From assembly GCA_947623925.1 (NCBI GenBank), contig CANQID010000001.1:4047-68046 (forward strand): a stretch of DNA of 64,000 nucleotides, given 5' to 3'. Each line of letters starts with the position of its first letter. Position 1 is the stretch's first letter. Below the pieces are notes generated by a model that searched no databases, was not told the origin of the DNA, and saw nothing but the letters and a program-made list of their open reading frames with translations. Below are positions 31,078 through 62,241 of the stretch, piece by piece. This DNA comes from an uncultured Bacilli bacterium. GTDB taxonomy: Bacteria; Bacillota_I; Bacilli_A; RF39; UBA660. Both the position numbers and the translations under genes were made by a program.

Positions 31078-31087
31078 GGAGATAAAT

Positions 31088-34889: not shown

Positions 34890-34958
34890 AACTTTTTTTG
34901 TAAATAATAGCAAAAATGACAATAAATCTTAAAAAAAATGTATAAATATGGTATAATC
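34890..34958 (+). promoter_or_regulatory. promoter module copy 1 with extended -10 (TGgTATAAT at 34949-34957)
   Basis: ~70 nt near-identical to 43762-43830 (AACTTTTTTTGTAAATAATAG[C/T]AAAAATG[A/G]CAATAAATCTTAAAAAAAATGTATAAATATGGTATAAT). It starts right after the tagO stop codon. Confidence 0.55.
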
Positions 34959-34988
34959 AATATATGTAGTTTTACTTTTTTGAGGTGT

Positions 34989-39942: not shown

Positions 39943-40871
39943 ATAAAGAAAAAAATTTCGTTTCAGCTGTTGTATATGTAAGGAATAATGAAAATAATAT
40001 TGCTAAATTTATTAAGGAGTTAAATAAGGTATTAAAAACTAACTTTCTTAAATATGAAATTATTTTTGTGAATGATTATTCTACTGATAATACTGTTTAT
40101 GAAATTAAAAAGTTAGTTAAAACTTTGGATACTGCTAGTATAAGTATAATAAATATGAGTATGTATCAAGGAAAAGAAATCGCTATGAATGCTGGTGTTG
40201 ATTTATCAATTGGTGATTTTGTTTATCAATTTGATACAATTTTAATGGATTACGATCCTAATGTTATATTTGATATTTATAAAAAATCATTAGAAGAGTA
40301 TGATATCGTTAATGCTGTTCCAAATAAAAAAAGAAAAGTTTCTTCTAAACTATTTTATAAAATATTTAATAAACATGCTAATTTATCTTATAAATTAGAT
40401 ACTGAAACTTTTAAAATAATATCAAGAAGAGCAATAAATAGAATTTATGCAATAAACAAAACAGTGCCTTATAGAAAAGCAATCGAAGCTGGTAGTGGCT
40501 TAAGAATGGCGAATGTAGAATATGAAGTAGTTAATAATGTTGATTATAAATTAGATAAAACAATTCAAAAAGAAAGAAGAAAAACCGCTGTAAATTCTTT
40601 AATATTATTTACTGATGTAAGTTATAAAATAGCCTTAACTTTATCACTTATAATGATGCTTTTAGTTGTATTAACTGGATGTTATACAGTTGTTATATTT
40701 TTAAGAAATGAAGCTATTAAAGGTTGGACAACTACTATGTTATTTTTAGCTTTTGGATTCTTTGGTATATTTTTAATATTTACAATTATAATTAAGTATT
40801 TATCTATTATTTTAAACCTTGTTTTCAAAAAAACCGATTTCCTAATTGAGTCAGTTCAAAAAATAAAATAG
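39939..40871 (+). CDS. GtrB/CsbB/ArnC-like GT2 polyprenyl-phosphate glycosyltransferase with two C-terminal TM helices
   Basis: N-terminal GT2 fold (VSAVVYVRNNEN..., IIFVNDYSTDNT). Two C-terminal TM helices (IALTLSLIMMLLVVLTG..., TTMLFLAFGFFGIFLIF), the GtrB architecture. Confidence 0.75.
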   Translation: MNKEKNFVSAVVYVRNNENNIAKFIKELNKVLKTNFLKYEIIFVNDYSTDNTVYEIKKLVKTLDTASISIINMSMYQGKEIAMNAGVDLSIGDFVYQFDTILMDYDPNVIFDIYKKSLEEYDIVNAVPNKKRKVSSKLFYKIFNKHANLSYKLDTETFKIISRRAINRIYAINKTVPYRKAIEAGSGLRMANVEYEVVNNVDYKLDKTIQKERRKTAVNSLILFTDVSYKIALTLSLIMMLLVVLTGCYTVVIFLRNEAIKGWTTTMLFLAFGFFGIFLIFTIIIKYLSIILNLVFKKTDFLIESVQKIK

Positions 40872-40878
40872 GTGATTT

Positions 40879-42834
40879 ATGATGAATAAAAAGAAATCAA
40901 TATATATATTATCAATATTAAATGCTATATATTTAATCTATTTAATATGTAGACCATATAAATATCCAGTATTAGGTATTGCATTAATATCTATAATTAT
41001 AATCCTTTTAGATATTTATTTAACACATAAATGGTTAAAAGCTGTAAAAAAAGATAAATTATATTCGAATAAAAAGAAATTAATTCTATATACTGGATTT
41101 AGTACATTATTTTTAATATTGTATTTTTGTGTATGTGGAGGGGTTAAATTTTTTACAAACACTTACCAAGATGCAAAAATTGTTTTTAGTAAAGAAGATA
41201 TATCTCAATCTTTTATTACTAGTATAACTATAGACAATGAAGTATTTAATAATTCTAATAATAAGTTTTATGATGATTTAGGAACAGAGAATACCAAAAT
41301 AAAATTTAAATTAGAAGAAAATAATGCAACATTGACGATAGAAGATGCTCGAAGCGGAATAATTACATTAAATAAAACTAGTGATGGAATGAAAGTAAAA
41401 GATGGTGAAAATAATCGTACAATAAAATTAGAAGATAACGAAGCTATAGAATATGAAATTGGATCATTATCAGTTTTTGATGGTAAATCAGTTATAAGGT
41501 CAGTTATATCCTTAGAATTAATATTGTTTGTAACATTTATGATAGCATCATATTTAATGAATATAAATAATAAAAATAATAAAAATAAGAAAAATATTAT
41601 TATAGCAATGTTAATAGTTGTATTAATAGGCCTATATTATTATCAAACAACAAGAATAGGAAATTTACATCCTGATTCACACGGGTATATTAATTATAAT
41701 TTTCAAGACTTATTAAAATTAAAATTAAATGATCGAACTCCAGTGTATCCATTAATAATAAGAATAATTAGGTTATGCTTTGGTATTAATAATTATTTAA
41801 GAATTATATCTTTCTTTCAATACATTGTATGGTTTATATCAATGATATATTTATATAAATTATTAGAAATATTAATAAAAAATAAAAAATTAGTATTTCT
41901 ATCAACAATATTGTATTCCCTAATGACATCAATTGTTGGTTGGAATAATGTAATTTTAACTGAATCTCTAGCCTTATCAGGAACGGTAATATACATATAT
42001 TATGTAATTAAGTATATAAAAGAAAATAAATTATCAAGCATTATGAAAGCTATAGTCTTATCATTAATATTAACTTTCCATAGACCAACTGCTATAATAT
42101 TAGTATTCTTTTTACCAATATTTTGGATAGTAAGATTTATTTTTGAAAGAGAGCATATAAGGAATGATATAAAGGGTTTTATAGGAAGTATGCTATCAGT
42201 TATAGTAATAGTAATTTATGCAATATTATTTCATAGAACCTATAATATATATTCCATTACCTCTGCAATGGTTAGACAAAATCTTTATGTGAATATGTAT
42301 AGTGGATTTTATAAAAATAGTAATGATGAACAATTTATTTACAGAGTAGAACAAGCTATTGCTAATAATCCTAATAACAAGTGGCAAGGATTAGGAGAAG
42401 TAAAATCACAATATTCAAATGAAGAATTAGTAAGGATTAATAGGCAATGTAAATTAAATAATATTAAAGGGTATTTAAGGTATTTAGTAAATTTAACTGT
42501 AAGTAATATGCCTGTAGAGTTTAGTAGTTATTCTTTTACAACAATAAATTCTAGTGTAAATATAATAAACCAATTTATATCTAGTTCAATTAATATTATA
42601 ACATTTGCAAGTGTTTATTTAGCAATTATAATAGAATTTATAATATTTATTTATAAATGGATTAAAGATAAAAAAATTCCATGGTTAGATGGCGGTTTAT
42701 TTGCTTTTCCACTAGTAATAGTTGCATCAACATTCATAGGAACTAATGCAGAGTTTATGCGTACTGCTATATGTGCAGTTCCATTTACTTTTATTACATA
42801 TATTTTATTAATATCAAGGATAATTAAGGAGTGA
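40879..42834 (+). CDS. large polytopic membrane protein, putative GT-C-fold glycosyltransferase (GtrC/YfhO-like role)
   Basis: 651-aa product with >10 TM helices and an extracytoplasmic loop domain. Sits between the GtrB-like GT2 and the ArnE/F-like pair. Confidence 0.5.
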   Translation: MMNKKKSIYILSILNAIYLIYLICRPYKYPVLGIALISIIIILLDIYLTHKWLKAVKKDKLYSNKKKLILYTGFSTLFLILYFCVCGGVKFFTNTYQDAKIVFSKEDISQSFITSITIDNEVFNNSNNKFYDDLGTENTKIKFKLEENNATLTIEDARSGIITLNKTSDGMKVKDGENNRTIKLEDNEAIEYEIGSLSVFDGKSVIRSVISLELILFVTFMIASYLMNINNKNNKNKKNIIIAMLIVVLIGLYYYQTTRIGNLHPDSHGYINYNFQDLLKLKLNDRTPVYPLIIRIIRLCFGINNYLRIISFFQYIVWFISMIYLYKLLEILIKNKKLVFLSTILYSLMTSIVGWNNVILTESLALSGTVIYIYYVIKYIKENKLSSIMKAIVLSLILTFHRPTAIILVFFLPIFWIVRFIFEREHIRNDIKGFIGSMLSVIVIVIYAILFHRTYNIYSITSAMVRQNLYVNMYSGFYKNSNDEQFIYRVEQAIANNPNNKWQGLGEVKSQYSNEELVRINRQCKLNNIKGYLRYLVNLTVSNMPVEFSSYSFTTINSSVNIINQFISSSINIITFASVYLAIIIEFIIFIYKWIKDKKIPWLDGGLFAFPLVIVASTFIGTNAEFMRTAICAVPFTFITYILLISRIIKE

Positions 42835-42882
42835 TGAAAAATAGTTGCATCGTTAAAAAAAAATAAAAAAGGTATTTTATTA

Positions 42883-43179
42883 ATGCTAGTATCGTCTATA
42901 TTTGCCTGTACAGGTCAATTATTATGGAAATTATCTGCTAATGGTAATATAATATTGTTATTGTGTGGCTTCTGTTTATATGGTTTAGGTGCATTAGTTA
43001 TGCTCTATGCTTATAAGTTTGGGAGCTTATCAGTTCTTCAACCTATTTTAAGTGCTAACTATATTTTTACAATTATTTTAGGAGGATTAATTTTAAAAGA
43101 AGTGATAACAATTAAAAAGGTTATAGGAATACTTATTATTATGGTTGGTGTCATCTTAATTGGTGGTGGCGAAAAATGA
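42883..43179 (+). CDS. small 4-TM DMT/SMR-like transporter subunit (ArnE-like putative polyprenyl-P-sugar flippase subunit)
   Basis: 98-aa product with 3-4 TM helices and the EamA/SMR-like GxxxG pattern. Overlaps the following paralogue by 4 nt. Confidence 0.6.
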   Translation: MLVSSIFACTGQLLWKLSANGNIILLLCGFCLYGLGALVMLYAYKFGSLSVLQPILSANYIFTIILGGLILKEVITIKKVIGILIIMVGVILIGGGEK

Positions 43180-43505
43180 TAAAGTATTACTTAATTTTAA
43201 TAATAATGACTTTTATGGGTTCTATTGCATCTTTATTTTTAAAAAAAACATCTAGTGCTGGTAATTTTATAAGTATGTTAAAAAATATAAATCTTTATAT
43301 TGGAGGTATTTTATATGTAATATCAGCCTTATTAAATATTTATCTTTTAAAATATTTAGATTATTCAATTGTTTTACCAATGACATCTATAACTTATATT
43401 TGGACTCTTATAATATCTGCTAAAATATTAAAAGAGAAAATAACTTTAAATAAAGTACTTGGAGTTACAAGTGTTATTATTGGTGTAATTATATTGGTTA
43501 TATAA
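43176..43505 (+). CDS. small 4-TM DMT/SMR-like transporter subunit (ArnF-like)
   Basis: 109-aa paralogue of the previous gene. Paired small subunits are typical of ArnE/ArnF. Confidence 0.6.
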   Translation: MIKYYLILIIMTFMGSIASLFLKKTSSAGNFISMLKNINLYIGGILYVISALLNIYLLKYLDYSIVLPMTSITYIWTLIISAKILKEKITLNKVLGVTSVIIGVIILVI

Positions 43506-43881: not shown

Positions 43882-44961
43882 TTGAGTATGTTAAATTTTA
43901 CAGTAGGACCGGTACAGTCTAGTGATAATGTAAGAAAAATTGGTGGTGAACAAGTACCATATTTTAGAACAGAAGAGTTCTCAAATATCATGTTAGAAAA
44001 CGAAAGATTAATTAAAAAATTTTCCAATTCTGGTGAAAATTCTAGAGTAGTATTTATAACAGGCTCTGGTACTGCTTCTATGGAAGCATCTGTTATAAAT
44101 ACTCTTACGAGAGAAGATAAATTATTAATAGTAAATGGTGGTAGTTTTGGACAAAGATTTGCAGAAATTTGTAATATACATGAACTTAATTATACTGAAA
44201 TAAAACTTGAAAGTGGTTGCAAATTAAAATCAAGTGATTTAGAACCATATGATAATAAAGGATATACTGCATTTATTGTTAATGTAGATGAAACATCTAC
44301 AGGAGTATATTATGATTTGAATTTAATTCATGAATTTTGTAAAAAAAATAATTTATTTTTAATAGTAGATGCAATAAGTTCATTTTTAGCAGATGAACTT
44401 GATATGCAAAAATATGAAATAGATGTTATGATCACAGGTTCTCAAAAAGCACTTGCTTGTCCACCTGGAATTTCAGTAATAGTACTTAGAGAAAATGCTT
44501 TAAAAAGAGTCCAAAATACTAATCCTAAATGTATGTATTTGGATTTAAAAAATGCACTATTAAATGGAGAAAGAGGTCAAACTCCTTTTACACCTGCTGT
44601 TGGAATTTTACTTCAAATAAATGAAAGACTAAAAGAAATAGAAAAAAATGGTGGAGTAGAATCTGAAATAAGAAAAATATCATCTATTGCGAATGACTTT
44701 AGAAATAGAATAAAAGATTTGCCTTTAAAAATAACATCAGAATCTTTATCAAATGCTGTAACACCATTATCTCCTTTAAATGTTTCAGCATATGATGTCT
44801 TTCTTACATTAAAAGATAAATATGACATATGGGTTTGTCCAAATGGGGGAGATTTAAAAGAAAAAATCTTTAGAGTTGGTCATATTGGAGATTTAACAAT
44901 TGAAGATAATGATAAATTGATATTAGCTTTAAAAGATATGGCAGATAAGCATTTATTATAA
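43882..44961 (+). CDS. class V aminotransferase, putative 2-aminoethylphosphonate:pyruvate aminotransferase (PhnW/AEP transaminase-like)
   Basis: AGT/class-V PLP fold (FTVGP, ITGSGTASMEA, PLP-lysine context ITGSQKALACPPG). First gene of an operon that also encodes PEP mutase and phosphonopyruvate decarboxylase. The start may be TTG 43882 or ATG 43888. Confidence 0.65.
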   Translation: MSMLNFTVGPVQSSDNVRKIGGEQVPYFRTEEFSNIMLENERLIKKFSNSGENSRVVFITGSGTASMEASVINTLTREDKLLIVNGGSFGQRFAEICNIHELNYTEIKLESGCKLKSSDLEPYDNKGYTAFIVNVDETSTGVYYDLNLIHEFCKKNNLFLIVDAISSFLADELDMQKYEIDVMITGSQKALACPPGISVIVLRENALKRVQNTNPKCMYLDLKNALLNGERGQTPFTPAVGILLQINERLKEIEKNGGVESEIRKISSIANDFRNRIKDLPLKITSESLSNAVTPLSPLNVSAYDVFLTLKDKYDIWVCPNGGDLKEKIFRVGHIGDLTIEDNDKLILALKDMADKHLL

Positions 44962-44982
44962 TATAAAAATGGAAGTGATATA

Positions 44983-46335
44983 TTGACTAGAGTAATTACT
45001 TATGGAACATATGATTTGTTACATTATGGACATATACGTTTATTAGAAAGAGCTAAACAATTAGGAGATTACTTAATTGTTGCAGTTACTTCAGATGACT
45101 TTGATAAAAAAAGAGGTAAAATTAATGTAAAACAATCATTAATGGAACGTATAGAAGCAGTAAGAAATACAGGACTTGCTGATGAGATTATAGTTGAAGA
45201 ATATGAAGGGCAAAAAATTGATGATATTAAAAGATATAATATTGATATATTTACTGTCGGATCTGATTGGAAGGGTAAATTTGATTATTTAAAAGAATAT
45301 TGTGATGTAGTGTATTTAGATAGAACGGAAGGTATTTCAAGTTCTAAACTTCGTTCAGAAACAACAACTCTTAAATTAGGAATAGTAGGTAACATTAAAC
45401 TTGCAGAAAAGTATATAACTGAAAGCAAATTTGTAAATGGATTAGAAATAGTTTCAATTTGTACAAATGATATTATTGAATTTGATACCGAAAATTTACA
45501 AAAATATTCTTATGATGAATATGATAAATTTTTAAGTAATATTGATGCAGTATATGTAGTATCTAATCCTAATGAACATTTTAATTTTGTTGATGAGGCA
45601 ATTAAAAATAAAAAACATGTTTTGTGTGAAACACCAATATGTTTAAAAAAAGATGAATGTTTATTATTATTTAAACAAGCTAAAGAAAATGGTGTAATAT
45701 TAATGGAGTCTAATAAGACTGCTTATTCAACTGCTTTTAATAGACTCTCATTATTAGTAAAAACAGGTTTAATAGGAAAAATTGTCTCAGTAGATGCAAC
45801 TTGTACAAGCATGGAAGAATATTTAAAGACAAATATAGAAGATATGCCAAAAAAACAAAATAGTATGTGTGCTTGGGGGTCTGTCGCTTTAGTTCCTATA
45901 TTTCAGTTGTTAGGAACGAATTATAACAAAATTCATTTTAGCACTTATTATTTAGATAAAAATATAAATTTTGATTTGTTTACGAAAGTAGATTTTAACT
46001 ATAATAATGCAGTTGCCTCTATAAAGGTTGGAAAAGGTGTTAAATCAGAGGGGGAACTTATTATTACAGGCACTAAAGGTTATATTTATGTCCCATCTCC
46101 TTGGTGGAAAACAGATTACTTTGAGATAAGATATGAATCACAAAATGACAATAAAAGATATTTCTATCAACTTGATGGTGAAGGCATAAGATATGAATTA
46201 GTAACTTTTCTTAAATCTGTTGAAAATGAAAAAAATTTATCATATATAGAACAAGAAATTAGTGAAGCAATAACTTTAGTTATTGAGAAATTTAATAATA
46301 AAGAAAATTTAGATGAAATATTTGTAGAAAGTTAG
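44983..46335 (+). CDS. bifunctional fusion: TagD-like glycerol-3-phosphate cytidylyltransferase domain + Gfo/Idh/MocA-family NAD(P)-dependent oxidoreductase domain
   Basis: N-terminal 130 aa closely match TagD (VITYGTYDLLHYGHIRLLERAKQLGDYLIVAV, DIFTVGSDWKGKFDYL, RTEGISSSKLR). C-terminal ~310 aa have a Gfo/Idh/MocA Rossmann region (LKLGIVGNIKLAEKYI, HVLCETP). Confidence 0.8.
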   Translation: MTRVITYGTYDLLHYGHIRLLERAKQLGDYLIVAVTSDDFDKKRGKINVKQSLMERIEAVRNTGLADEIIVEEYEGQKIDDIKRYNIDIFTVGSDWKGKFDYLKEYCDVVYLDRTEGISSSKLRSETTTLKLGIVGNIKLAEKYITESKFVNGLEIVSICTNDIIEFDTENLQKYSYDEYDKFLSNIDAVYVVSNPNEHFNFVDEAIKNKKHVLCETPICLKKDECLLLFKQAKENGVILMESNKTAYSTAFNRLSLLVKTGLIGKIVSVDATCTSMEEYLKTNIEDMPKKQNSMCAWGSVALVPIFQLLGTNYNKIHFSTYYLDKNINFDLFTKVDFNYNNAVASIKVGKGVKSEGELIITGTKGYIYVPSPWWKTDYFEIRYESQNDNKRYFYQLDGEGIRYELVTFLKSVENEKNLSYIEQEISEAITLVIEKFNNKENLDEIFVES

Positions 46336-46343
46336 GTTATAGT

Positions 46344-47231
46344 ATGACTGAGGTAAAAGAATTAACAAAAGAAGAATTCAGAAAAATGCAATTAATGCAG
46401 TTAGATATGATTAAAGAACTTGATAGGGTGTGTAGAAAACATAACATTAAATATACAATATTTGCGGGCACATTACTTGGAGCAGTAAGACATAAAGGAT
46501 ATATACCATGGGATGATGATGCTGATATTGCCATGTTAAGAGAAGAATATGAAAAGTTTAAATTAGTTGCAGATGAATTAGATTCAAGTATATGTTATTT
46601 TCAAGACCATACTACTGATCCTAATTACAGATGGGGGTATGCAAAATTAAGACGAACTAATACTGAATATATTAGGGTTGGTCAAGAACACTTAAAATGT
46701 AAAACTGGATTTTTTATAGATATTTTTCCAATGGATGATATTCCAAAATCTACAATTGGTCAAGTTTTTAATGATTTTTATTGCTTTTGCTTGAGAAAAA
46801 TATTATATTCTGAGGTTGGCAAAGTTTCAAAAAGTGAAAGTAAATTATCAAGAAAATGGTATTCATTATTGTCAAAAATTCCAACTAATAAAGTATGGAA
46901 AAGATTAGATAAAATGACAAAAAAAAGTAATAATTCTAGTGAAAATAGAGTTAGAATATATCTTTTCCCTTCACTTGGAAAATCAAATAAAAAAAATTCA
47001 TTAAAGACAAAGTATGGAATGCCAAAGGAATGGTTTTTAAATTTTAACGAATATGATTTTGAAGAAAATAAATTTTATGGTACAGCTGATTATGATTCTT
47101 GTTTAAAATATCTTTATGATGACTATATGAAGTTACCACCTGAAGATAAAAGAGAGCAACACTCACCAACTTCTTCATATAGTTTTGATACGACAATTAG
47201 AAATAAAATTCGAGAGGATGATAATAAATGA
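46344..47231 (+). CDS. licD: LicD-family phosphotransferase (CDP/CMP-activated phospho-head-group transferase, fukutin/LicD superfamily)
   Basis: MQLMQLDMIKELDRVCRKHNIKYTIFAGTLLGAVRHKGYIPWDDDADIAM (LicD DxD core) and a conserved downstream D.F.D segment (GFFIDIFPMDD). Confidence 0.8.
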   Translation: MTEVKELTKEEFRKMQLMQLDMIKELDRVCRKHNIKYTIFAGTLLGAVRHKGYIPWDDDADIAMLREEYEKFKLVADELDSSICYFQDHTTDPNYRWGYAKLRRTNTEYIRVGQEHLKCKTGFFIDIFPMDDIPKSTIGQVFNDFYCFCLRKILYSEVGKVSKSESKLSRKWYSLLSKIPTNKVWKRLDKMTKKSNNSSENRVRIYLFPSLGKSNKKNSLKTKYGMPKEWFLNFNEYDFEENKFYGTADYDSCLKYLYDDYMKLPPEDKREQHSPTSSYSFDTTIRNKIREDDNK

Positions 47232-48535
47232 ATAAAAAAGTATATATAGCTATGTCCGCTGATTTTATTCATGATGGTCATATTAATGTAATAGAAGAAG
47301 GCTCAAGATATGGAGATGTAATTATTGGACTTTTAACAGATGAAGCAATAGCAACTTATAAAAGGATGCCATTACTAAATTATGATACTAGAAAGCGCAT
47401 TTTTGAGAACATGAAACATGTTAAAGAAGTAGTAAAGCAAGAAACTTTGGATTATACAAATAATTTAAAAAAAATAAAACCTGATTATGTAATTCATGGA
47501 GACGATTGGAAAAAAGGAATACAAAGTGTTATTAGACAAAAGGTTATTGATACTTTAAAAGAATGGAATGGAAAACTTATAGAAATTCCTTATACTATAG
47601 GTAACAATTGCACAGATTTAGAACATGAATATAGAATGCTAACAAATACACCTGATAATAGAAGAAGTAAACTAAAAAAATTATTAAATTTAAAACCTTA
47701 TATAAGTGTAATGGAAGCATCTAATGGATTAACAGGGTTGATTGTTGAAAATGCAAGAGTTGAAAACGAAAAGACAGGTTATTTAAAAGAATTTGATGCT
47801 ATGTGGGTAAGTAGTTTATGTGATTCTACATTTAAGGGAAAACCTGATATTGAATTAGTTGATTTAACTAGTAGAATAAATACAATTAATGAAATAATGG
47901 AAGTTACTACGAAACCTATAATTTTAGATGGTGATACAGGTGGAAAGGTAGAACACTTTGTTTATAATGTAAAAACACTAGAAAGATTGGGCGTTTCAGC
48001 AATAATAATAGAGGATAAAACTGGTTTAAAGAAAAACTCACTTTTTGGTACAGAAGTAGAACAGACACTTGATGATCCAGATAATTTTGCTAATAAAATT
48101 AGAGCAGGTAAGCAGGCTTTAGTAACTCGTGATTTTTTGATATTTGCTCGTCTAGAAAGTTTAATTGCAGGTAAAGGTATTGATGATGCATTATTTCGTG
48201 CTAAAAAATATTTAGAAGCAGGTGCTGATGGAATAATGATTCATAGCAAAGAAAAAGATGGCTCTGAAATTAAAGAATTTTTGAAAATATTTAGGAAAAA
48301 TTATCCAAATGTTCCAGTAATTGTTGTTCCAACTTCATATAATCAGTTTACTGAAAGTGAATTACATGAGTGGGGAGCAAATATAATAATTCATGCTAAT
48401 CATTTACTTAGAAGTGCATATCCAGCTATGATGAAAACAGCAAAATCAATTTTAGAAAATGGAAGAAGTAAAGAAGCAGATGAATACTGTATGCCTATTA
48501 AAGAAATTTTAACATTAATTCCAGGAGGTAAATAA
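47228..48535 (+). CDS. ppm: fusion: HxGH-type cytidylyltransferase domain + phosphoenolpyruvate phosphomutase (Ppm)
   Basis: N-terminal ~130 aa match the cytidylyltransferase-like family (IAMSADFIHDGHINVI). C-terminal ~290 aa are PEP mutase/ICL superfamily (VMEASNGLTGLIVENA, ILDGDTGGKVEHF, IIEDKTGLKKNSLFG, ARLES). Confidence 0.85.
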   Translation: MNKKVYIAMSADFIHDGHINVIEEGSRYGDVIIGLLTDEAIATYKRMPLLNYDTRKRIFENMKHVKEVVKQETLDYTNNLKKIKPDYVIHGDDWKKGIQSVIRQKVIDTLKEWNGKLIEIPYTIGNNCTDLEHEYRMLTNTPDNRRSKLKKLLNLKPYISVMEASNGLTGLIVENARVENEKTGYLKEFDAMWVSSLCDSTFKGKPDIELVDLTSRINTINEIMEVTTKPIILDGDTGGKVEHFVYNVKTLERLGVSAIIIEDKTGLKKNSLFGTEVEQTLDDPDNFANKIRAGKQALVTRDFLIFARLESLIAGKGIDDALFRAKKYLEAGADGIMIHSKEKDGSEIKEFLKIFRKNYPNVPVIVVPTSYNQFTESELHEWGANIIIHANHLLRSAYPAMMKTAKSILENGRSKEADEYCMPIKEILTLIPGGK

Positions 48536-49645
48536 ATGGTTGATACTGAAAAATTTTATGATTATTTGATTACTAAAAATTTAGATTTTTTTGCAGGGGT
48601 ACCGGATTCTTTATTAAAGAATCTGTGTTCTTGTATTAAAGAAAAATCTGATAAAACGCATAATATTATAACATCAAATGAAGGTAATGCAGTAGCTCTA
48701 GCGTCAGGTTATCATATTTCATCAGGTAAGTATGGTGTTGTATATATGCAAAATTCTGGAATTGGAAATGCGGTTAATCCTTTACTATCTTTAGCTGATG
48801 AAGAGGTTTATAGTATTCCAATGTTATTAATAGTTGGATGGCGTGGAGAGCCTGGCATTAAAGACGAACCTCAACATATTAAACAAGGTAAAGTTACAAT
48901 CGAATTATTTGAAACAATGGGAATAGAGTGTGTTATATTAGATGAAAATTATCAAGAAAAAATAGATTATTGCTATAAATATATAAGCAGTAATAATAAA
49001 CCTATTGCTTTAATTGTAAAAAAAGGTTTATTTACTGAATATAAATCTTCTAAACCAATTAATAATTATTTAATAACTAGAGAAGAAGCTTTAGAAACAA
49101 TTGTAGATTGTTTAAATGAAAATGATTTTATTGTTTCTACAACAGGAAAAACTTCAAGAGAACTTTTTGAAATAAGAGAAAAAAGGAAAGAAAAACATAG
49201 TAATGATTTTTTAACTGTTGGTTCTATGGGACATACTTCTTCTATAGCTCTAGGAATGAGTATTGGCAGTGAAAATAATATATATTGCATTGATGGTGAT
49301 GGTTCATTTATTATGCATATGGGTTCATTTGCAATAATACCTACAGTTGCAAAACAAAATTTTAAGTATATTTTAATAAATAATGGTGCACATGAATCTG
49401 TTGGGGGACAACCTACTGTTGCATTCAATATAGATATTCAAAAAATGTTATTATCATTAGGATTTAAAAATGTATATATTGCAAAAACAAATGAAGAAAT
49501 AAAAAAGTATATGAATAATTTAAAAAATGGTGAATTACAAGCATTAGTAATTTATACTAAATTAGGTTCTAGAGATAATCTTGGAAGACCTACAATTAGT
49601 CCTATAGAAAATAAAAAAGCAATGATGGAAAAATTTAGAAATTAG
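48536..49645 (+). CDS. ppd: phosphonopyruvate decarboxylase (ThDP-dependent)
   Basis: N-terminal FFAGVPDSLLKN, ThDP-binding GDGS...NNG region (IDGDGSFIMHMGS...INNGAHESVGG). Immediately follows ppm. Confidence 0.85.
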   Translation: MVDTEKFYDYLITKNLDFFAGVPDSLLKNLCSCIKEKSDKTHNIITSNEGNAVALASGYHISSGKYGVVYMQNSGIGNAVNPLLSLADEEVYSIPMLLIVGWRGEPGIKDEPQHIKQGKVTIELFETMGIECVILDENYQEKIDYCYKYISSNNKPIALIVKKGLFTEYKSSKPINNYLITREEALETIVDCLNENDFIVSTTGKTSRELFEIREKRKEKHSNDFLTVGSMGHTSSIALGMSIGSENNIYCIDGDGSFIMHMGSFAIIPTVAKQNFKYILINNGAHESVGGQPTVAFNIDIQKMLLSLGFKNVYIAKTNEEIKKYMNNLKNGELQALVIYTKLGSRDNLGRPTISPIENKKAMMEKFRN

Positions 49646-49653
49646 GTGTAGAA

Positions 49654-50382
49654 ATGAAAGCAATTATATTTAATTCTGGTATTGGTAAACGAATGGGTGA
49701 ATTTACAAAAAAGCATCATAAATCAATGGCAGTATTAAAAAATAAAGAAACAATTTTTGAAAGACAGATTAGGATTTTAAGTGAATGTGGAATAAGAGAA
49801 TTTGTTGTTACAACAGGTCCTTTTAAAGAACAACTTATAGAGGTAACTAAAAAGTTTCAAAATTTGAAATTTAATTTTGTTCAAAATGATTTATATGATA
49901 GTACAAACTATATATATTCTATGTATTTAGCTAGAAAAAATTTTGATGATGATTTTTTGTTACTACATGGTGATTTGGTTTTTAATAAAGATTTAGTAGA
50001 AGAAATGATAGGTGAAAAAAATTCAACTTGTTTAATAAATGAAAATAAACCTTTACCTGAAAAAGATTTTAAAGGAAGAATAAAAAATGGTAAATTAAAA
50101 GAAGTTTCAATAAATATTTTTGATCAAGATTGCTATGCTTTTCAACCACTTTACAAGTTAAATAAATCTGATTTATTAGCGTGGTCTAATGCTGTTGAAA
50201 AATTTGTAGAAGAAGGTAATAGAGGTGTATATGCAGAAAATGCATTAAATACAATTTTAAATGATATAAATATATATGCAAAATCATATAGTAATCACTA
50301 TATTGATGAGATAGATAATTTAGAAGATTATAATAGAGTTATAAATGAAATTGAAGAATTTGAAAAATTAAAAACAAAGTAA
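49654..50382 (+). CDS. LicC-like nucleotidyltransferase (putative phosphonate/phospho-head-group cytidylyltransferase, PntC-like)
   Basis: NTP_transferase fold with MKAIIFNSGIGKRMGEFT (G-x-G-x-R). 242 aa, similar in size to LicC. Confidence 0.7.
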   Translation: MKAIIFNSGIGKRMGEFTKKHHKSMAVLKNKETIFERQIRILSECGIREFVVTTGPFKEQLIEVTKKFQNLKFNFVQNDLYDSTNYIYSMYLARKNFDDDFLLLHGDLVFNKDLVEEMIGEKNSTCLINENKPLPEKDFKGRIKNGKLKEVSINIFDQDCYAFQPLYKLNKSDLLAWSNAVEKFVEEGNRGVYAENALNTILNDINIYAKSYSNHYIDEIDNLEDYNRVINEIEEFEKLKTK

Positions 50383-50397
50383 TGTTTGAGGTGATTT

Positions 50398-51492
50398 ATG
50401 AATAATCAACAATTTATTTATAGTTATGATGAAATATCTAATATAATTGATTTAGAACAAAATAATAATATCTTTATTGTATGTGATAAATTTTTAATGG
50501 ATTCATTTATTATAAATTATTTAAAAAAAATAAGTAGAAATATTTTTATATTTACTGAATTTAATCCAAATCCAAAATATGAAGATGTATTATTAGGAAT
50601 TGATTTATTCAAAAAAAATAATTGTAACTTTATAATATCTATAGGTGGTGGTAGTGCTATAGATGTTGCGAAATGTATAAAGGCTTTTGTTACATTAAAT
50701 GATAAAAAAAATTATTTGGAACAGGAAATTATTAAAAATGATATAAATCATTTAGCAATTCCTACAACTGCTGGGACAGGCAGTGAATCTACTCATTTTG
50801 CTGTAATTTATTATGAAGAAAATAAATATTCAGTAGATGATAGTACCTTACTTCCAACTTATGTATTATTGGAATCTAAATTTTTAGAAAGTTTACCAAT
50901 ATATCAAAAAAAATCAACGATGTTAGATGCACTTTGTCAAGGAATAGAATCACTTTGGAGCGTCAATTCAACAGAAGAAAGTAAGGAATATGCTATTAAG
51001 GCTATTCAATTAATTTTAAATAATTATAGAGATTATATTAATGAAAATAAAAGTGTTTATAATGATATTATGTTAGCAGCGAATTACAGTGGGAGAGCTA
51101 TAAATATAAGTAAAACAACTGCACCTCATGCAATGAGTTATAAAATAACATCTTTATATGGAATTAGTCATGGACATGCTGTTGCATTATGTTTACCATA
51201 TGTATGGGAATATATGATTAATAATATAGATAAGATAATTGATAAAAGGGGAGTAAAATATTTAAAAGATATTTTTAATAGACTAGATATATTATTTAAT
51301 TGTGATTCACATATTGAATCAATAAATAAATTTAAGAATATTTGTAGTGAAATAAATTTAAATATTAAAGGTATAGTAAAAAGGAAAGATTTACAACTTT
51401 TGGTTTCTTCAGTGAATATACAAAGATTAAGCAATAATCCAGTTAGTTTAAATAAAGAAGAAATAAAAAAAATATATGAAAAACTTGCTTAG
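50398..51492 (+). CDS. iron-containing (group III) alcohol dehydrogenase, candidate phosphonoacetaldehyde reductase
   Basis: Fe-ADH motifs IISIGGGSAIDVAKCI and IPTTAGTGSEST. It is the last gene of the ppm-ppd operon. Confidence 0.7.
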   Translation: MNNQQFIYSYDEISNIIDLEQNNNIFIVCDKFLMDSFIINYLKKISRNIFIFTEFNPNPKYEDVLLGIDLFKKNNCNFIISIGGGSAIDVAKCIKAFVTLNDKKNYLEQEIIKNDINHLAIPTTAGTGSESTHFAVIYYEENKYSVDDSTLLPTYVLLESKFLESLPIYQKKSTMLDALCQGIESLWSVNSTEESKEYAIKAIQLILNNYRDYINENKSVYNDIMLAANYSGRAINISKTTAPHAMSYKITSLYGISHGHAVALCLPYVWEYMINNIDKIIDKRGVKYLKDIFNRLDILFNCDSHIESINKFKNICSEINLNIKGIVKRKDLQLLVSSVNIQRLSNNPVSLNKEEIKKIYEKLA

Positions 51493-57837: not shown

Positions 57838-58956
57838 ATGAAAAAATTAACATTTTTATTACTTCATTTAGGATATGGTGGAATAGAAACAGCAACTATA
57901 AATACTGTAAATGCTTTATCTAATGAGTATGATGTTGAAATAGTTTCTTTTTATAATTTGAAAAATAACCAAGAAAATCGAATTAATAAAAAAGTAAAGA
58001 TTAAGTATTTATACAATGGAGAGCCTAATAAAAAAGAATTTTTACTGGCATTAAAGAACAAAAAAATTTTTTCAATTTTAAAAGAAGGCATAAAATCAAT
58101 TAATATTTTGAAAAATAAAAAACTTTTTTTAAAAAAAGAAATTAAAAATAGTTCTGCTGATGTTATCATTTCTACTCGCTATGAGTTTAGTACGATTTTA
58201 AGTAAATATGGAAAAAGTGAAACTCTTAAAATAGCACAAGAACATCATCATCATAATAATGATAAAAAATATATAAAAATTTTATCAACAAAGTATTATA
58301 ATATTGATTATTTATTTGCTTTGACTGAAGGGTTAAAAAAGGATTATGAGAAATTTTTATTAAAAAATAAGCATACAAAGATTGTTGTTGTTCCAAATAT
58401 GCTAGTTGATTTGCCAGTTAAAAAATCTAATTTAATAAGTAATAATCTAATAACTATTAGTAGATTAGATTATGGCAAAAGAAATAATGAATTAATAAAT
58501 ATAGTTTCAAACTTAAAAATAGATTTTAAATTATATATAATTGGTGATGGTGAAGAATATGCTAATTTACAAAATCAAATTAATGAACTTAATTTATCTG
58601 ATAAAGTTATTTTAACAGGTTATAAAAACAAAGCTGAAATTGAAAAATATATGTTGAAATCAAGTATATTTTTAATGGCATCAGTTAGTGAAGGATTACC
58701 AATGGTTTTGCTTGAGGCTATGAGTTATGGACTTCCATGTATTGCATATGAGACGGATAGTGGTGTATGTGATATTATTGAAAATGAAAAAAACGGATAT
58801 GTAATTAAAAATAGAGATGAAAAAAATTACATTAAATTATTAGAGAATTTAATGTGTAGTAATGATTTAAAAAAAACATTTTCTAAAGAAGCAGTAAAAA
58901 AATCAGAACAATTTTATAAAGATAAAATAATAAAAATTTGGAAAAAAATAATTTAA
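57838..58956 (+). CDS. glycosyltransferase family 4 (GT-B)
   Basis: ASVSEGLPMVLLEAMSYGLPCIAYE and NGYVI. Confidence 0.8.
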   Translation: MKKLTFLLLHLGYGGIETATINTVNALSNEYDVEIVSFYNLKNNQENRINKKVKIKYLYNGEPNKKEFLLALKNKKIFSILKEGIKSINILKNKKLFLKKEIKNSSADVIISTRYEFSTILSKYGKSETLKIAQEHHHHNNDKKYIKILSTKYYNIDYLFALTEGLKKDYEKFLLKNKHTKIVVVPNMLVDLPVKKSNLISNNLITISRLDYGKRNNELINIVSNLKIDFKLYIIGDGEEYANLQNQINELNLSDKVILTGYKNKAEIEKYMLKSSIFLMASVSEGLPMVLLEAMSYGLPCIAYETDSGVCDIIENEKNGYVIKNRDEKNYIKLLENLMCSNDLKKTFSKEAVKKSEQFYKDKIIKIWKKII

Positions 58957-58963
58957 GAATTTA

Positions 58964-59005
58964 TTAAATTAGTGCTATTATATATTAAATTAGTGCTATT
59001 ATATA
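58964..59005 (+). repeat. perfect 21-nt tandem duplication (TTAAATTAGTGCTATTATATA x2) in the intergenic region
   Basis: 58964-58984 equals 58985-59005, just upstream of the RBS of the 59030 gene. Confidence 0.7.
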
Positions 59006-59029: not shown

Positions 59030-60736
59030 ATGAATAATAAAAAAATATTGCATTTAGGGATATCAATATTGTTATTTATTTTTAATATATTATTTGTTTC
59101 AACATTTCTTTTTATTTTTAAAATATCTATAAATGTTTGGAATACCATTTTAGCTATATTAATAACAACATTTGAATATTTTATTTTAATGAAAAAAAGG
59201 GAATATGATTTAAAGGATATAATTAAGTATATTATTATATTTTTATTTCTAATAATAGCTTGTAATTATATATCAGGAAAAATTTATGATACATCCTGGG
59301 ATGGAAGTTCATATCATAAAGTTGCTGTTGGAGAATTAAAAAACGGATGGAATCCTTTATATGAAAATATAGAAGATTTTAATGAAAGTGAAGAAAATCC
59401 TTTAGTTCTTCAAAATACACATTCAATATGGGATAATCATTATGCAAAAGGGTATTGGATTTATGCAGCAAATATGTACAAAATTACTAATAATATAGAA
59501 AGTGGAAAAAGTATATTATTACTTTCTATTATATCTACATTTTTAATTTCTTTTAGTTTTTTGAATGACAAAATAAAAAAAGGATATAGCTTTATATTGT
59601 CTTGCTTGCTGGCATTAAATCCAGTTATGTTATGTCAAATTTCTACCTATTATAATGATGGATTATTGGGAAATTTTGTAATTATGCTAATAATTGCGCT
59701 ATTCATGATTACGGATAGTAAAAAGGAAATTATATTTGAAAAGTATTTACTATATTTTTTGATATTATGTATTTTAATTAATATAAAGTTTACTGGTTTT
59801 GCATATGCAGGTATATATTCATTTGTGTTTTACATGTATATATTAATAAGTAAAAAGCAACGTAAAAACAATTTAAAATTATTGACTATTGTAACAGTAA
59901 TCGGTTTAGTAGTGAGTTTAGGGGTAATTGGACTTTCAACATATCCTAAAAATTTTGTTGAACATGGTCATCCTTTTTACCCACTTTATGGTAAGGGAAA
60001 TGTAGATATAATGGAATCTACAACACCTACAGAATTATATAAAATGAATAGATTTAAACGATTCGTAATATCTAATTTCTCTTATACTTATAATAGAATT
60101 AATTATTCGTATAGAATAAAAGTACCATTTACTTTTGAATCAAGTGAACTAGAAAATTTTAGAACACCAGATACAAGAGTTGGTGGATATGGGGTTTTGT
60201 TTGGAGGAATATTAATTCTTAGTTTAGCATTTGGAATATATGCATTGTTTAAAAATTATAAAGAAAGGAAAAATTGCACTAATTATTTATTAACTATATT
60301 TTGCATGTTTATAGTTATAGCTATATTGAAAGAAAGTTGGTGGGCAAGGTATTTTCCACAATTCTATTTGATTCCAATATTAGTGATATTAATGCTTTTA
60401 AATTTAAAAAAAGATAAAATAACAAAAATTGCTCCTTTATTAATGATCATAGCTTTGATATTTAATTCTTACTTAATAGCAAATTATTCATTAAGTGAAA
60501 TCATTCATCAAAGAAATGTTATAAATACAACTAGATCTATTATCAAAAATATAAATGAAGATAAAATGTTATTAGTTGATACCTCTTCATATCTTAATGA
60601 TTCAACTTTTGATGGCATGGCTTATGATATATATGATATACATAAAAATATGAAAGTAATTAAACCAGATGAAATATTAGATGGATATACGATGTATAGC
60701 TATCCTAATCTTAAGATTTTTGTAAAGGAGGAATAA
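59030..60736 (+). CDS. polytopic membrane protein, candidate GT-C-fold glycosyltransferase/polymerase
   Basis: 568-aa product with >10 TM helices and a C-terminal extracytoplasmic domain. Immediately upstream of a UbiA-type polyprenyl-P phosphoribosyltransferase-like gene. Confidence 0.5.
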   Translation: MNNKKILHLGISILLFIFNILFVSTFLFIFKISINVWNTILAILITTFEYFILMKKREYDLKDIIKYIIIFLFLIIACNYISGKIYDTSWDGSSYHKVAVGELKNGWNPLYENIEDFNESEENPLVLQNTHSIWDNHYAKGYWIYAANMYKITNNIESGKSILLLSIISTFLISFSFLNDKIKKGYSFILSCLLALNPVMLCQISTYYNDGLLGNFVIMLIIALFMITDSKKEIIFEKYLLYFLILCILINIKFTGFAYAGIYSFVFYMYILISKKQRKNNLKLLTIVTVIGLVVSLGVIGLSTYPKNFVEHGHPFYPLYGKGNVDIMESTTPTELYKMNRFKRFVISNFSYTYNRINYSYRIKVPFTFESSELENFRTPDTRVGGYGVLFGGILILSLAFGIYALFKNYKERKNCTNYLLTIFCMFIVIAILKESWWARYFPQFYLIPILVILMLLNLKKDKITKIAPLLMIIALIFNSYLIANYSLSEIIHQRNVINTTRSIIKNINEDKMLLVDTSSYLNDSTFDGMAYDIYDIHKNMKVIKPDEILDGYTMYSYPNLKIFVKEE

Positions 60737-60737
60737 T

Positions 60738-61580
60738 GTGAAAAAATATTTTCAATTAATAAGAATTAATCATTGGATAAAAAATTTTTTGATATTTATT
60801 CCAATGTTGACTGCTCATATTTTGACCTCTCAAAATGTTTTTAAAGTAATCTTAGGTTTTTTGTCATTTTCATTTTTAACATCATTTATTTATATAATTA
60901 ATGATATTCAAGATATTGAAAAAGATAAGTTGCATCCGAGAAAATGTAAAAGGCCCTTACCTAGTGGTGAAATAAAAAAATCTGAAGCAATATATATTGC
61001 TTTGTTAATTATAATAACAAGTATTATAATTAATAGTATTATAAACAAATCATTTATAAATTTTTCTTTGTTGTGGTTAATAGCTTATCTTGTAATCAAT
61101 GTTTTATATAGTTTTGGATTAAAAAATGTGCCAATAGTAGATATTTTTATTTTAGCTTTAGGATTTGTTATAAGGATATATTATGGAGCATCAATAATAA
61201 ATGTTGAAGTTTCTGATTGGCTATTTTTAACTATTTTAAGTGCATCGTTATTTCTAGGTTTAGGTAAGAGAAAGAAGGAAATTAAACAAAGTAAAAAATC
61301 TCGTAAAGTTTTAGAAGAATATAGTGAAAATTTTTTAGATAAATTTCAATATATATGTTTAACTTTGACTTTAGTATTTTATTCATTATGGGTTATTTTA
61401 CAAAATATAAAATATTTAATTGTAACTATACCATTAATTATGATTATTTTTATGAAGTATTGTTTAAAAATTGAAAATAGTGATGAAGGTGATCCTACTA
61501 CTATTTTATATCAGGATAAAAGCTTATTAATTTTATGCTTCTTATATGGCATTTTATTATTGATATTGATGGTGTGCTAA
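60738..61580 (+). CDS. UbiA-family prenyltransferase, decaprenyl-phosphate phosphoribosyltransferase (DPPR synthase, Rv3806c)-like
   Basis: NDIQDIEKDKLHPRKCKRPLPSGEI (NDxxDxxxD plus RPLPSG), 7-8 TM helices, 280 aa. Confidence 0.65.
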   Translation: MKKYFQLIRINHWIKNFLIFIPMLTAHILTSQNVFKVILGFLSFSFLTSFIYIINDIQDIEKDKLHPRKCKRPLPSGEIKKSEAIYIALLIIITSIIINSIINKSFINFSLLWLIAYLVINVLYSFGLKNVPIVDIFILALGFVIRIYYGASIINVEVSDWLFLTILSASLFLGLGKRKKEIKQSKKSRKVLEEYSENFLDKFQYICLTLTLVFYSLWVILQNIKYLIVTIPLIMIIFMKYCLKIENSDEGDPTTILYQDKSLLILCFLYGILLLILMVC

Positions 61581-61581
61581 T

Positions 61582-62241
61582 ATGAATGTGTATGATTTTG
61601 ATGGCACTATTTATGATGGTGATAGTTCATTAGATTTTTTCCTATTTTGTTTAAAAAAAGGTAAGGTTGGAATAATTTGTTTATTAAAAATATTATTCTC
61701 TACTCCATTGTATCTAATCAAAGTTATTTCTACTAAGAAATATAAACAAATATTTTTTTCGTTTTTGAAAAAATTAAAAAATCCAGATGAACTTATAGAA
61801 GTTTTTTGGGTACAACATGTTTATAAAATAAATAATGAAATGGATGCTATTTTAAGAAACAGAATTAATAATATTATTATAACTGCTTCTCCAGAATTTT
61901 TAGTTAGTCCTATAGCAATAAAATATAATTGCAAAATCATAGGTACTAGAATGAATGTAAGAACAGGTATTATTACTGGTAATAATTGTAGCGGAGATGA
62001 AAAAATTAAAAGATTAAATCAAAATTATTCTGATGTTAAAATTTTTGAATTTTATACTGACTCGTTAAAAGATAAGCCGCTTGCAAAATTGGCAAAAGAA
62101 AGTTATATGGTAGTAAATAAAAAAATAGTCTTATGGAATGAAAAAATTTTAAAATTTAAAAAAAGAAAAAATAATATTTTGATTATAGTATTACTATTTT
62201 TTATAGTATGTTTTTCATTTCTTTTATTACAAGTATTTTAA
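61582..62241 (+). CDS. HAD-superfamily (IB-like) phosphatase with C-terminal TM anchor
   Basis: HAD motif I YDFDGTIYDGDS and C-terminal hydrophobic helix (ILIIVLLFFIVCFSFLLL). Confidence 0.6.
   Translation: MNVYDFDGTIYDGDSSLDFFLFCLKKGKVGIICLLKILFSTPLYLIKVISTKKYKQIFFSFLKKLKNPDELIEVFWVQHVYKINNEMDAILRNRINNIIITASPEFLVSPIAIKYNCKIIGTRMNVRTGIITGNNCSGDEKIKRLNQNYSDVKIFEFYTDSLKDKPLAKLAKESYMVVNKKIVLWNEKILKFKKRKNNILIIVLLFFIVCFSFLLLQVF

Follow-up and report, generated by a model that had tools for sequence, protein, structure and literature searches.

A predicted lipid-linked ribofuranose donor and transfer module in an envelope-glycan locus of an uncultured Bacilli bacterium

What do three adjoining genes of an uncultured Bacilli bacterium make together, and where does their product go? 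The question is raised by positions 59030-62241 of a 64-kb stretch of DNA (contig CANQID010000001.1 of assembly GCA_947623925.1; the whole analyzed stretch of 64,000 nucleotides is called the window here), where the genes of a 568-aa membrane protein, a 280-aa protein of the UbiA superfamily, and a 219-aa HAD-family protein follow one another. An earlier reading of the letters alone, referred to below as the original prediction, had seen in them a polyprenyl-phospho-pentofuranose donor pathway of the mycobacterial kind, serving a glycan of the Firmicutes envelope. We conclude, with a probability of roughly 70%, that the trio is the core, for both donor synthesis and transfer, of an extracytoplasmic pentofuranosylation system of the three-component type. 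Most likely, the trio makes a lipid-linked ribose donor, and the ribose is then attached extracellularly to a polymer of the cell surface.

The coordinates originally given for the three open reading frames (ORFs) were exact, and all of them are on the + strand. The first (59030-60736) encodes the 568-aa protein, classed by AlphaFold2 and Foldseek as a GT-C-fold membrane glycosyltransferase. It is followed by the gene of the putative polyprenyl-phosphate 5-phosphoribosyltransferase (PPPRS), a UbiA-superfamily protein of the Rv3806c type by PF01040, NCBIfam, and the phylogenetic tree (60738-61580, GTG start), and by the gene of a membrane-anchored HAD-IB phosphatase (61582-62241; PF12710, TIGR01490/TIGR01488). 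A single base lies between each stop codon and the following start. AGGAG precedes the ATG of the GT-C gene, and GGAGG is placed 6 nt before the GTG of the UbiA gene, within the 3' end of the GT-C gene. The layout of the trio fits a single co-translated unit.

The 280-aa protein matches PF01040 (E 1.8e-25, residues 21-252) and contains the motifs N55-D56-x2-D59-x3-D63 and R72-P-L-P-S-G77. The three best-scoring NCBIfam models are all models of decaprenyl-phosphate 5-phosphoribosyltransferase (DPPRS), at 206, 176, and 138 bits; the best model of any other kind reaches 67 bits, and those of ubiA and cyoE reach 45 and 40 bits, respectively. The best match in the PDB is mycobacterial Rv3806c (8j8j, E 1.3e-30, residues 7-268), the E value of an archaeal UbiA being 5.6e-11. 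In a neighbour-joining tree (500 bootstraps), which included E. coli UbiA, MenA, and CyoE as prenyltransferase references, the protein fell into a Firmicutes clade (100%) nested with Rv3806c, the DPPRS of Nocardia and Tsukamurella, and a HAD::UbiA protein of Rhizobium. A bootstrap support of 91% separated this DPPRS-like clade from the three E. coli enzymes, so that the phylogenetic check against Rv3806c, MenA, UbiA, and CyoE that had been proposed for the protein placed it with DPPRS.

Residues of Rv3806c have been assigned to the binding of Mg2+, of pyrophosphate (by a cluster of Lys and Arg), and of the 5'-phosphate (PMC10994848). Ten ligand residues of that enzyme, R22, K28, Y70, N73, D77, K87, R90, Y138, K143, and K208, are kept in the window protein as R9, K15, Y52, N55, D59, K69, R72, Y124, K129, and K190, in the same order. 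Y157 is replaced by F143, and the DPPRS of Nocardia and Tsukamurella also have Phe at this position. The positions that discriminate the clade, K15, Y52, K69, K177, and E181, differ in the E. coli enzymes. The NCBIfam scores, the PDB match, the tree, and the ligand residues all agree with the Rv3806c-type identity that the original prediction had assigned to this protein. We predict from its sequence that it is a PPPRS that would make polyprenyl-phosphate-ribofuranose-5-phosphate from phosphoribosyl pyrophosphate (PRPP).

One argument for that identity had to be given up. The motif NDxxDxxxD had been taken as a signature of DPPRS, but it is common to the whole superfamily, as E. coli UbiA and MenA carry it as well. 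Together with the UbiA-superfamily fold, the motif would suit an ordinary prenyltransferase of the MenA, UbiA, or CyoE kind, with the HAD and membrane-protein genes as unrelated neighbours. We consider such an enzyme hardly credible here, as prenyltransferase models score at most 67 bits versus 206 for DPPRS, and the tree splits the two groups at 91%. Moreover, where canonical enzymes have a pair of Asp residues in loop IV (D-R-x-x-D in E. coli UbiA), the window protein has K177 and E181, and canonical enzymes are without K15, Y52, and K69. An ordinary prenyltransferase could not account either for the strict linkage with HAD and GT-C genes, fusions included, that is described below.

A search of a phage collection gave a single weak and unannotated match. 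It is a homologue with 28.6% identity encoded by MT837543.1, an unannotated 6.6-kb 'Bacteriophage sp.' contig from human faeces, and it recalls the phage-borne system of Kelly et al. (PMC11127046).

The 219-aa protein matches PF12710 (E 2.1e-15) and the HAD-IB models TIGR01490/TIGR01488. It has the DFDGT motif I at residues 5-9 and a hydrophobic C-terminal helix at about residues 198-219, with a 19-residue hydropathy maximum of 3.08. All four HAD motifs are present (D5-F-D7-G-T9, T101-A-S-P104, K141, and D160-S-x-x-D164), and D5, D7, T9, A102/P104, K141, D160, S161, and D164 are invariant or nearly so across 12 HAD homologues. Thus, the objection that the protein might be a pseudo-phosphatase devoid of the DxD nucleophile fails. 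A catalytically intact phosphatase with a C-terminal membrane helix is well placed for the 5'-dephosphorylation step that had been proposed for it. The C-terminal helix can be aligned with helix 1 of the partners to which the HAD is fused in relatives, as described below. The similarity of the stand-alone HAD to the phosphatase domain of known fused enzymes is weak. The hhalign comparison of its profile with the N-terminal phosphatase domain of the Rhizobium HAD::UbiA protein gave E 2.8e-4 and a probability of 41%, in a full-length alignment of 151 columns at 21% identity, and PRK08238, the NCBIfam model of fused HAD::UbiA, matched residues 98-183 of the window HAD with E 0.005. We predict that the protein is a phosphoribose 5'-phosphatase (PRP) that would convert polyprenyl-phosphate-ribofuranose-5-phosphate to polyprenyl-phosphate-ribofuranose.

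Contrary to its two neighbours, the 568-aa protein could not be placed by sequence: it had no match in Pfam, only a faint match in NCBIfam, and no sequence match in the PDB, and 0 of its 419 homologues bore a name. Its AlphaFold2 model, built with 33 homologues, is a confident one, with a predicted local distance difference test score (pLDDT) of 92.9 and a predicted template modelling score (pTM) of 0.94. It shows a polytopic protein with about 13 transmembrane helices and a small C-terminal domain (~55 aa). In a Foldseek comparison with the PDB, the best 13 matches were all GT-C enzymes with lipid-linked donors, namely ALG12, AftA, ArnT, ALG9, STT3, AglB, DPY19, Emb, Pmt, and AftD. The best of them had E 3.4e-4 and a TM-score of 0.46, and five had E<=1e-3 (ALG12, two AftA chains, ArnT, and ALG9) at a probability of 1.00. 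The suggestion that the upstream membrane protein is GT-C-like is thereby borne out by the model and by the GT-C-only top matches.

The invariant residues of the 568-aa protein comprise D87, D91, Y95, H96, and K97 in the first large loop, after helix 3, and the motif W437-W-A-R440-Y441. As the N-terminus and the turn between helices 2 and 3 are positively charged, the topology predicts that the loop with D87 and D91 lies outside the membrane. A profile search at E<=1e-30 found 2,058 clusters of related proteins, which constitute a large GT-C family without a name or a Pfam or NCBIfam assignment. We predict that the 568-aa protein is an extracytoplasmic transferase that uses a polyprenyl-phosphate-ribofuranose donor.

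Two longer members of the family, P0293 (1,064 aa) and P0324 (1,149 aa), had been considered as UbiA-HAD-GT-C triple fusions and were rejected as such, since Pfam shows them to be tandem GT-C fusions. In each, the 568-aa family is joined to a second GT-C-type domain (PMT_2 or PTPS_related). In several related loci, a second large membrane protein, of a 488-510-aa family, is encoded beside the module. The tandem fusions and the second membrane protein hint at two successive transfers.

Does the trio belong together? It recurs across gut Firmicutes. Six homologues of the 568-aa protein (34-44% identity) were sampled, and for each of them a UbiA gene was located no more than 2.5 kb away and a gene for HAD or HAD::GtrA no more than 5 kb away. 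The PPPRS gene was accompanied by a HAD gene throughout the Firmicutes-type loci that were examined: it is adjacent or near in loci L003-L012, L016, and L018-L024, and there is a partial match at the truncated end of L013. Fusions occur among these genes. HAD::GtrA proteins are encoded in L004, L007, L010, L012, L018/L019, L021, and L024, and span 319-346 aa (L004 6783-7808, L007 6865-7845, L018 9578-10537, and L024 10115-11083). In four loci of 'Tenericutes'/Bacilli metagenome-assembled genomes (MAGs), the HAD is fused to a member of the 568-aa GT-C family, giving proteins of 764-770 aa (L005 6866-9160, L006, L008, and L009). In Proteobacteria, it is fused to PPPRS proper, as in the Rhizobium HAD::UbiA protein and NCBIfam PRK08238. 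These fusions physically tie the phosphatase to the transferase or the flippase of one pathway.

In L021, a PRPP synthetase gene adjoins HAD::GtrA (13718-13764, running off the end of the locus), which would fit a PRPP donor supplied locally.

Taking the examined loci together, the large polytopic membrane proteins found with the PPPRS-HAD pair fall into at least four unrelated families, and GT-C folds or domains are seen in two of these. Such variety points to a portable cassette for the donor whose transferases can be exchanged. A wider proposal follows the same line, and we offer it tentatively, at somewhat less than even odds: the 568-aa protein would found a large, unclassified GT-C family (at least ~2,000 clusters, 50% identity) that is separate from GT136 and specialised in polyprenyl-phosphate-pentofuranose donors, with α-ribofuranose common in gut lineages and PPPRS and the stand-alone HAD acting as the portable cassette. 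If such a dedicated GT-C family is real, α-ribofuranose side chains would be common and overlooked on the wall glycopolymers of uncultured gut Bacilli, Clostridia, and lineages labelled 'Tenericutes'.

Which sugar does the donor carry? The original prediction had left room for arabinofuranose, the product of the mycobacterial decaprenyl-phosphoarabinose (DPA) pathway, and this half of it was not supported. The tblastn search of the window and ~3 kb downstream with DprE1-like and DprE2-like probes from a Rhizobium plasmid found none (best E 0.21). Two window proteins had been put forward as an unrelated analogue of the 2'-epimerisation. One is the FAD protein encoded at 38809, a DAO/Rossmann-type protein that matches in the N-terminal dinucleotide fold only. 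The other, encoded at 34938-36707 (34938, and not 34989 as originally given, is the correct start), is an unusual 589-aa fusion of an RmlD/SDR-like NAD-binding domain (SDR, short-chain dehydrogenase/reductase) to a xylose-isomerase-like TIM barrel; the best matches of the barrel are 5-keto-L-gluconate and psicose epimerases. Both proteins are unrelated to DprE1/DprE2, and their genes lie 20-24 kb from the trio, in another module among other lipid-sugar genes. No homologue of either was found in the 22 related loci with PPPRS modules, and that role is not supported for them. The SDR encoded nearby, downstream of the trio, is a genuine GalE (430 bits versus a cut-off of 262) that follows a gene of the GDP-mannose pathway. 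As there is neither DprE1/DprE2 nor a dedicated SDR epimerase, ribofuranose is likely, and not arabinofuranose.

The same machinery could still deliver arabinofuranose or xylofuranose if polyprenyl-phosphate-ribose were epimerised before flipping by enzymes unrelated to DprE1/DprE2, such as the 38809 and 34938 proteins, or by the GalE-like SDR. Conversion of ribofuranose donors to xylofuranose or arabinofuranose by accessory epimerases (the SDR ORF13 or DprE1/E2) was shown by Kelly et al., whose GT-C is promiscuous (PMC11127046). The window encodes an FAD oxidoreductase and an SDR-like/TIM-barrel protein, and in L024 the module is preceded by genes for an SDR and an amine-oxidase-like FAD protein. 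We nevertheless regard an epimerised donor as improbable, given the negative DprE1/DprE2 probes, the distance of the 38809 and 34938 genes and their absence from all 22 related loci, and the score of the downstream SDR, which is far above the equivalog cut-off of GalE. Moreover, most related modules are without a nearby oxidoreductase.

A scheme with ribofuranose as the sugar can be drawn up, starting from the family assignments, catalytic residues, GT-C fold, and gene linkage and fusions that were observed directly. At the cytoplasmic face, the UbiA-type enzyme would move ribose-5-phosphate from PRPP to a polyprenyl phosphate, presumably undecaprenyl phosphate. By analogy with Rv3806c, the reaction would be inverting and give a β-linked lipid. 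The membrane-tethered HAD would then strip the 5'-phosphate, leaving polyprenyl-phosphate-ribofuranose, which would be flipped across the membrane. Outside, the 568-aa GT-C would put ribofuranose on an already exported envelope glycopolymer. An α-linkage is to be expected if this GT-C inverts, as the lipid would be β-linked. The acceptor and the flippase are the least certain steps.

Candidates for the flippase are an ArnE/F-like pair encoded at 42883-43505 or a GtrA encoded elsewhere in the genome. A six-frame translation search of the 64-kb window for a GtrA-like ORF gave none (best E 0.057). The ArnE/F-like pair consists of two overlapping half-size EamA ORFs of 98 and 109 aa (42883-43179 and 43176-43505, + strand), which match PF00892 with E 6.2e-11 and 1.4e-8. 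Their best NCBIfam matches are ArnF and ArnE, at E 3.7e-6 and 8.5e-8, both below the cut-offs. The pair is the only candidate for a flippase of polyprenyl-phosphate sugars within the window, and it may, we infer, also serve the ribofuranose module 16 kb downstream. It stands directly 3' of genes for a PgfS-like GT2 (39939-40871) and for a 651-aa GT-C-fold protein with an inserted β-sandwich domain (40879-42834), and thus belongs first to a hexose-type module. The 651-aa protein is a second GT-C of the window (model pLDDT 86.6, GT-C-only top matches, and homologues with PMT_2). Positions 39939-43505 appear to be a second, hexose-type module of extracytoplasmic glycosylation, whose genes have no homologue in the related PPPRS loci. 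Another GT2, of 267 aa (36712-37515), has AglJ, PpgS, ArnC, and a dolichyl-phosphate hexose transferase as its best matches, and may be a third lipid-monophosphate sugar donor enzyme of the locus.

Where would the sugar go? The trio is situated near the end of an envelope-glycan locus of ~30 kb. The locus begins with a WecA/MraY-type initiating transferase (33819) and includes two GT2 genes resembling those of polyprenyl-phosphate-sugar synthases (36712 and 39939) and genes for an acyltransferase and the FAD oxidoreductase (38809). Genes for a Wzy-like protein and a Wzx flippase, and then for GT4, GT2, and GT4 enzymes, lie between a phosphonate branch and the trio. A WecG/TagA-family transferase gene (62463) comes after the trio, and genes for a ManC-like guanylyltransferase and the genuine GalE are placed just past the end of the window. 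This content (WecA/TagA, Wzx/Wzy, and GT2/GT4) supports the Firmicutes envelope-glycan setting that had been claimed for the trio. The acceptor would most likely be the WecA/TagA-primed, Wzx/Wzy-assembled, phosphonate-decorated polysaccharide of this locus.

The phosphonate branch itself (43882-51492) encodes a class-V aminotransferase, a cytidylyltransferase with a GFO oxidoreductase, LicD, a cytidylyltransferase::phosphoenolpyruvate-mutase fusion (47228-48535), a thiamine pyrophosphate-dependent enzyme like phosphonopyruvate decarboxylase, a nucleotidyltransferase, and an Fe-alcohol dehydrogenase. It suggests decoration of the polymer with aminoethyl- or hydroxyethyl-phosphonate.

The donor pathway might operate as proposed and yet serve another acceptor: a protein (through O-glycosylation of an S-layer or a pilin, as with TfpW of Pseudomonas), lipoteichoic acid (LTA), or another ubiquitous component of the envelope. 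In L018/L019, lysS, greA, and metK surround the trio in place of glycan genes, and in L020 it is found beside genes of SLH-domain proteins and of a pyruvyltransferase-family protein. The S-layer glycan of Clostridioides difficile Ox247 has α-ribofuranose branches, although this glycan has not been linked to the PPPRS pathway (PMC6254364), and in other Gram-positives both LTA and proteins are glycosylated by GT-C enzymes (PMC8035078). Against this, the trios of the window and of L020-L024 occur amid genes for GT2/GT4 enzymes, WecG/TagA, an MnaA-type epimerase, and Wzx/Wzy or ABC transporters, and a Lactococcus example lies in an exopolysaccharide (EPS) locus with an LCP ligase gene. We therefore hold a different acceptor to be unlikely and prefer the polysaccharide of the surrounding locus.

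Several observations weigh against a ribofuranosylation system as outlined above. The UbiA-type protein scores below the equivalog cut-offs of its best models (NF008977, 206.4 versus 234; NF008978, 176.3 versus 207), and is therefore a divergent member of the DPPRS clade and not an equivalog of the actinobacterial enzyme. The TM-scores of the 568-aa model to solved GT-C structures are modest (0.33-0.46). Moreover, hhalign found no similarity between the 568-aa family and the GT-C candidates encoded by the PPPRS genes of Lactococcus and Rhizobium, so that the use of a ribose donor is argued from linkage and fusion and not from a characterised homologue. No flippase gene adjoins the trio; the EamA pair is 16 kb away, beside a different GT-C, and has no homologue in the related loci. 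The housekeeping setting of the L018/L019 trio (lysS, greA, and metK) indicates that the acceptor need not be the product of a neighbouring glycan locus.

Some further features of the region were noted. The G+C content of the window is ~23%, and every gene is on one strand. Identical proteins were found on gut-type metagenome contigs, and the closest genome relatives are MAGs of uncultured Bacilli, 'Tenericutes'/Mycoplasmatota, and Clostridia. Ahead of the GT-C gene there is a 73-bp spacer, most of which is taken up by two perfect tandem copies of the 21-bp unit ttaaattagtgctattatata (58964-59005, + strand), as seen in the sequence itself. Each copy contains a TGnTATTAT extended -10-like element, and the duplication may, speculatively, be an internal promoter for the trio, as a duplicated promoter or operator. 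One promoter-like match (58953-58981) extends into the first copy; promoter-like sites were not enriched in the region (41 versus 42 in shuffles), and the promoter and terminator scan found no terminator 3' of the HAD gene. Directly before the glycan locus, the 28939-32569 stretch encodes a 712-aa protein, in which two SH3_3 domains are combined with a C-terminal dockerin, and after it a 502-aa protein with a cadherin-like β-sandwich domain.

If the assignment holds, three genes with generic annotations or none at all acquire a specific, testable function, and a functional prediction becomes available for ~2,000 clusters of 'hypothetical' membrane proteins that are abundant in human-gut metagenomes. 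Ribofuranose, which is rarely sought in Gram-positive envelopes, would be predicted on the wall polymers of many uncultured gut Firmicutes. Such side chains typically determine phage adsorption, recognition by antibodies, and immune signalling. The enzymes of the trio would also extend the glycoengineering toolbox for polysaccharides that bear pentofuranoses. Moreover, the view of the Rv3806c-type pathway as essentially a speciality of Corynebacteriales is corrected.

How does the module compare with known systems? A pathway of this kind was already described in 2024 (PMC11127046), and the window trio is a sound find, not a novel kind of system. Biochemical work by Kelly et al. (PNAS 2024) demonstrated the formation of polyprenyl-phosphate-ribofuranose by a PPPRS-PRP enzyme, and the transfer of ribofuranose by a GT-C of family GT136 to the completed O antigen in the periplasm (PMC11127046). 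In Citrobacter youngae O1/O2, ORF15 is the PPPRS-PRP, ORF14 the flippase (of the ArnE/F type), and ORF12 the GT-C (GT136), in which a pair of acidic residues and an Arg-Tyr pair are essential (PMC11127046). The system was found to be widespread, and the examples given comprise Gram-positive candidates, a Bacillus locus, and a phage whose PRP is separate (PMC11127046). Because of these results, and of the Lactococcus plasmid homologues that NCBI labels as DPPRS, the original prediction is out of date in calling the pathway only sporadically known beyond Corynebacteriales.

As in C. youngae O1/O2, the window encodes a PRPP-using UbiA-type PPPRS, a HAD-family PRP, and a GT-C-fold transferase within a surface-polysaccharide locus that also has an ArnE/F-like pair of small transporters. 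In contrast to C. youngae, the PRP of the window is separate and has a membrane helix of its own, instead of being an N-terminal domain of PPPRS. The window GT-C has no Pfam or NCBIfam assignment; it carries a C-terminal domain of ~55 aa where ORF12 has a carbohydrate-binding module of 150 aa, and its acidic loop comes after the third helix. Its D87/D91 and WWARY are loosely reminiscent of the essential residues of ORF12, which is an analogy and not an alignment. The flippase candidate is not adjacent to the module, and the polymer of the monoderm-type Firmicute host is WecA/TagA-primed, versus the lipopolysaccharide O antigen of C. youngae.

The mycobacterial DPA pathway comprises Rv3806c, Rv3807c, DprE1/DprE2, Rv3789, and the Emb/Aft GT-Cs. 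The first enzyme of the window is homologous to Rv3806c (27.9% identity, PRPP-binding residues kept), and the order of events would be the same: formation of lipid-phosphate-ribose-5-phosphate, dephosphorylation, flipping, and transfer by a GT-C outside. However, the window phosphatase is a HAD-IB protein and not a PAP2 protein like Rv3807c (in the actinobacterial locus L029, a PAP2 gene is directly upstream of the DPPRS gene), DprE1/DprE2 are missing, and no sequence similarity links the GT-C to Emb/Aft. Undecaprenyl phosphate is presumably the lipid, and not decaprenyl phosphate, and the outcome is likely the decoration of side chains in place of the polymerisation of an arabinan.

A module in the EPS locus of the Lactococcus cremoris plasmid pF27D (NZ_CP068515.2) comprises genes for a 462-aa hypothetical membrane protein, PPPRS, HAD-IB, and GtrA, with an LCP gene nearby; NCBI labels the PPPRS homologue of the Lactococcus plasmid 'decaprenyl-phosphate phosphoribosyltransferase'. 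It shares with the window the Firmicutes Wzx/Wzy setting and the order of membrane protein, PPPRS, and stand-alone HAD (PPPRS 37% and HAD 35% identical). It differs in the GtrA gene that follows the HAD gene and in its membrane protein, which is of another family (hhalign probability 0.1%). Literature searches found no functional study of the pF27D module and no study of the PPPRS pathway in Firmicutes.

Finally, the trio resembles systems of the Gtr/Csd/Gac type, which consist of a GT2 synthase of undecaprenyl-phosphate-hexose, a GtrA-type flippase, and a GT-C, in that a lipid-monophosphate sugar would be made, flipped, and transferred by a GT-C to a completed polymer. In those systems, the donor is made from a nucleotide sugar by a GT2, whereas that of the trio would come from PRPP by the action of a UbiA-fold enzyme and a phosphatase. 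A hexose-type module of the Gtr/Csd/Gac kind also appears in the window, at 39939-43505.

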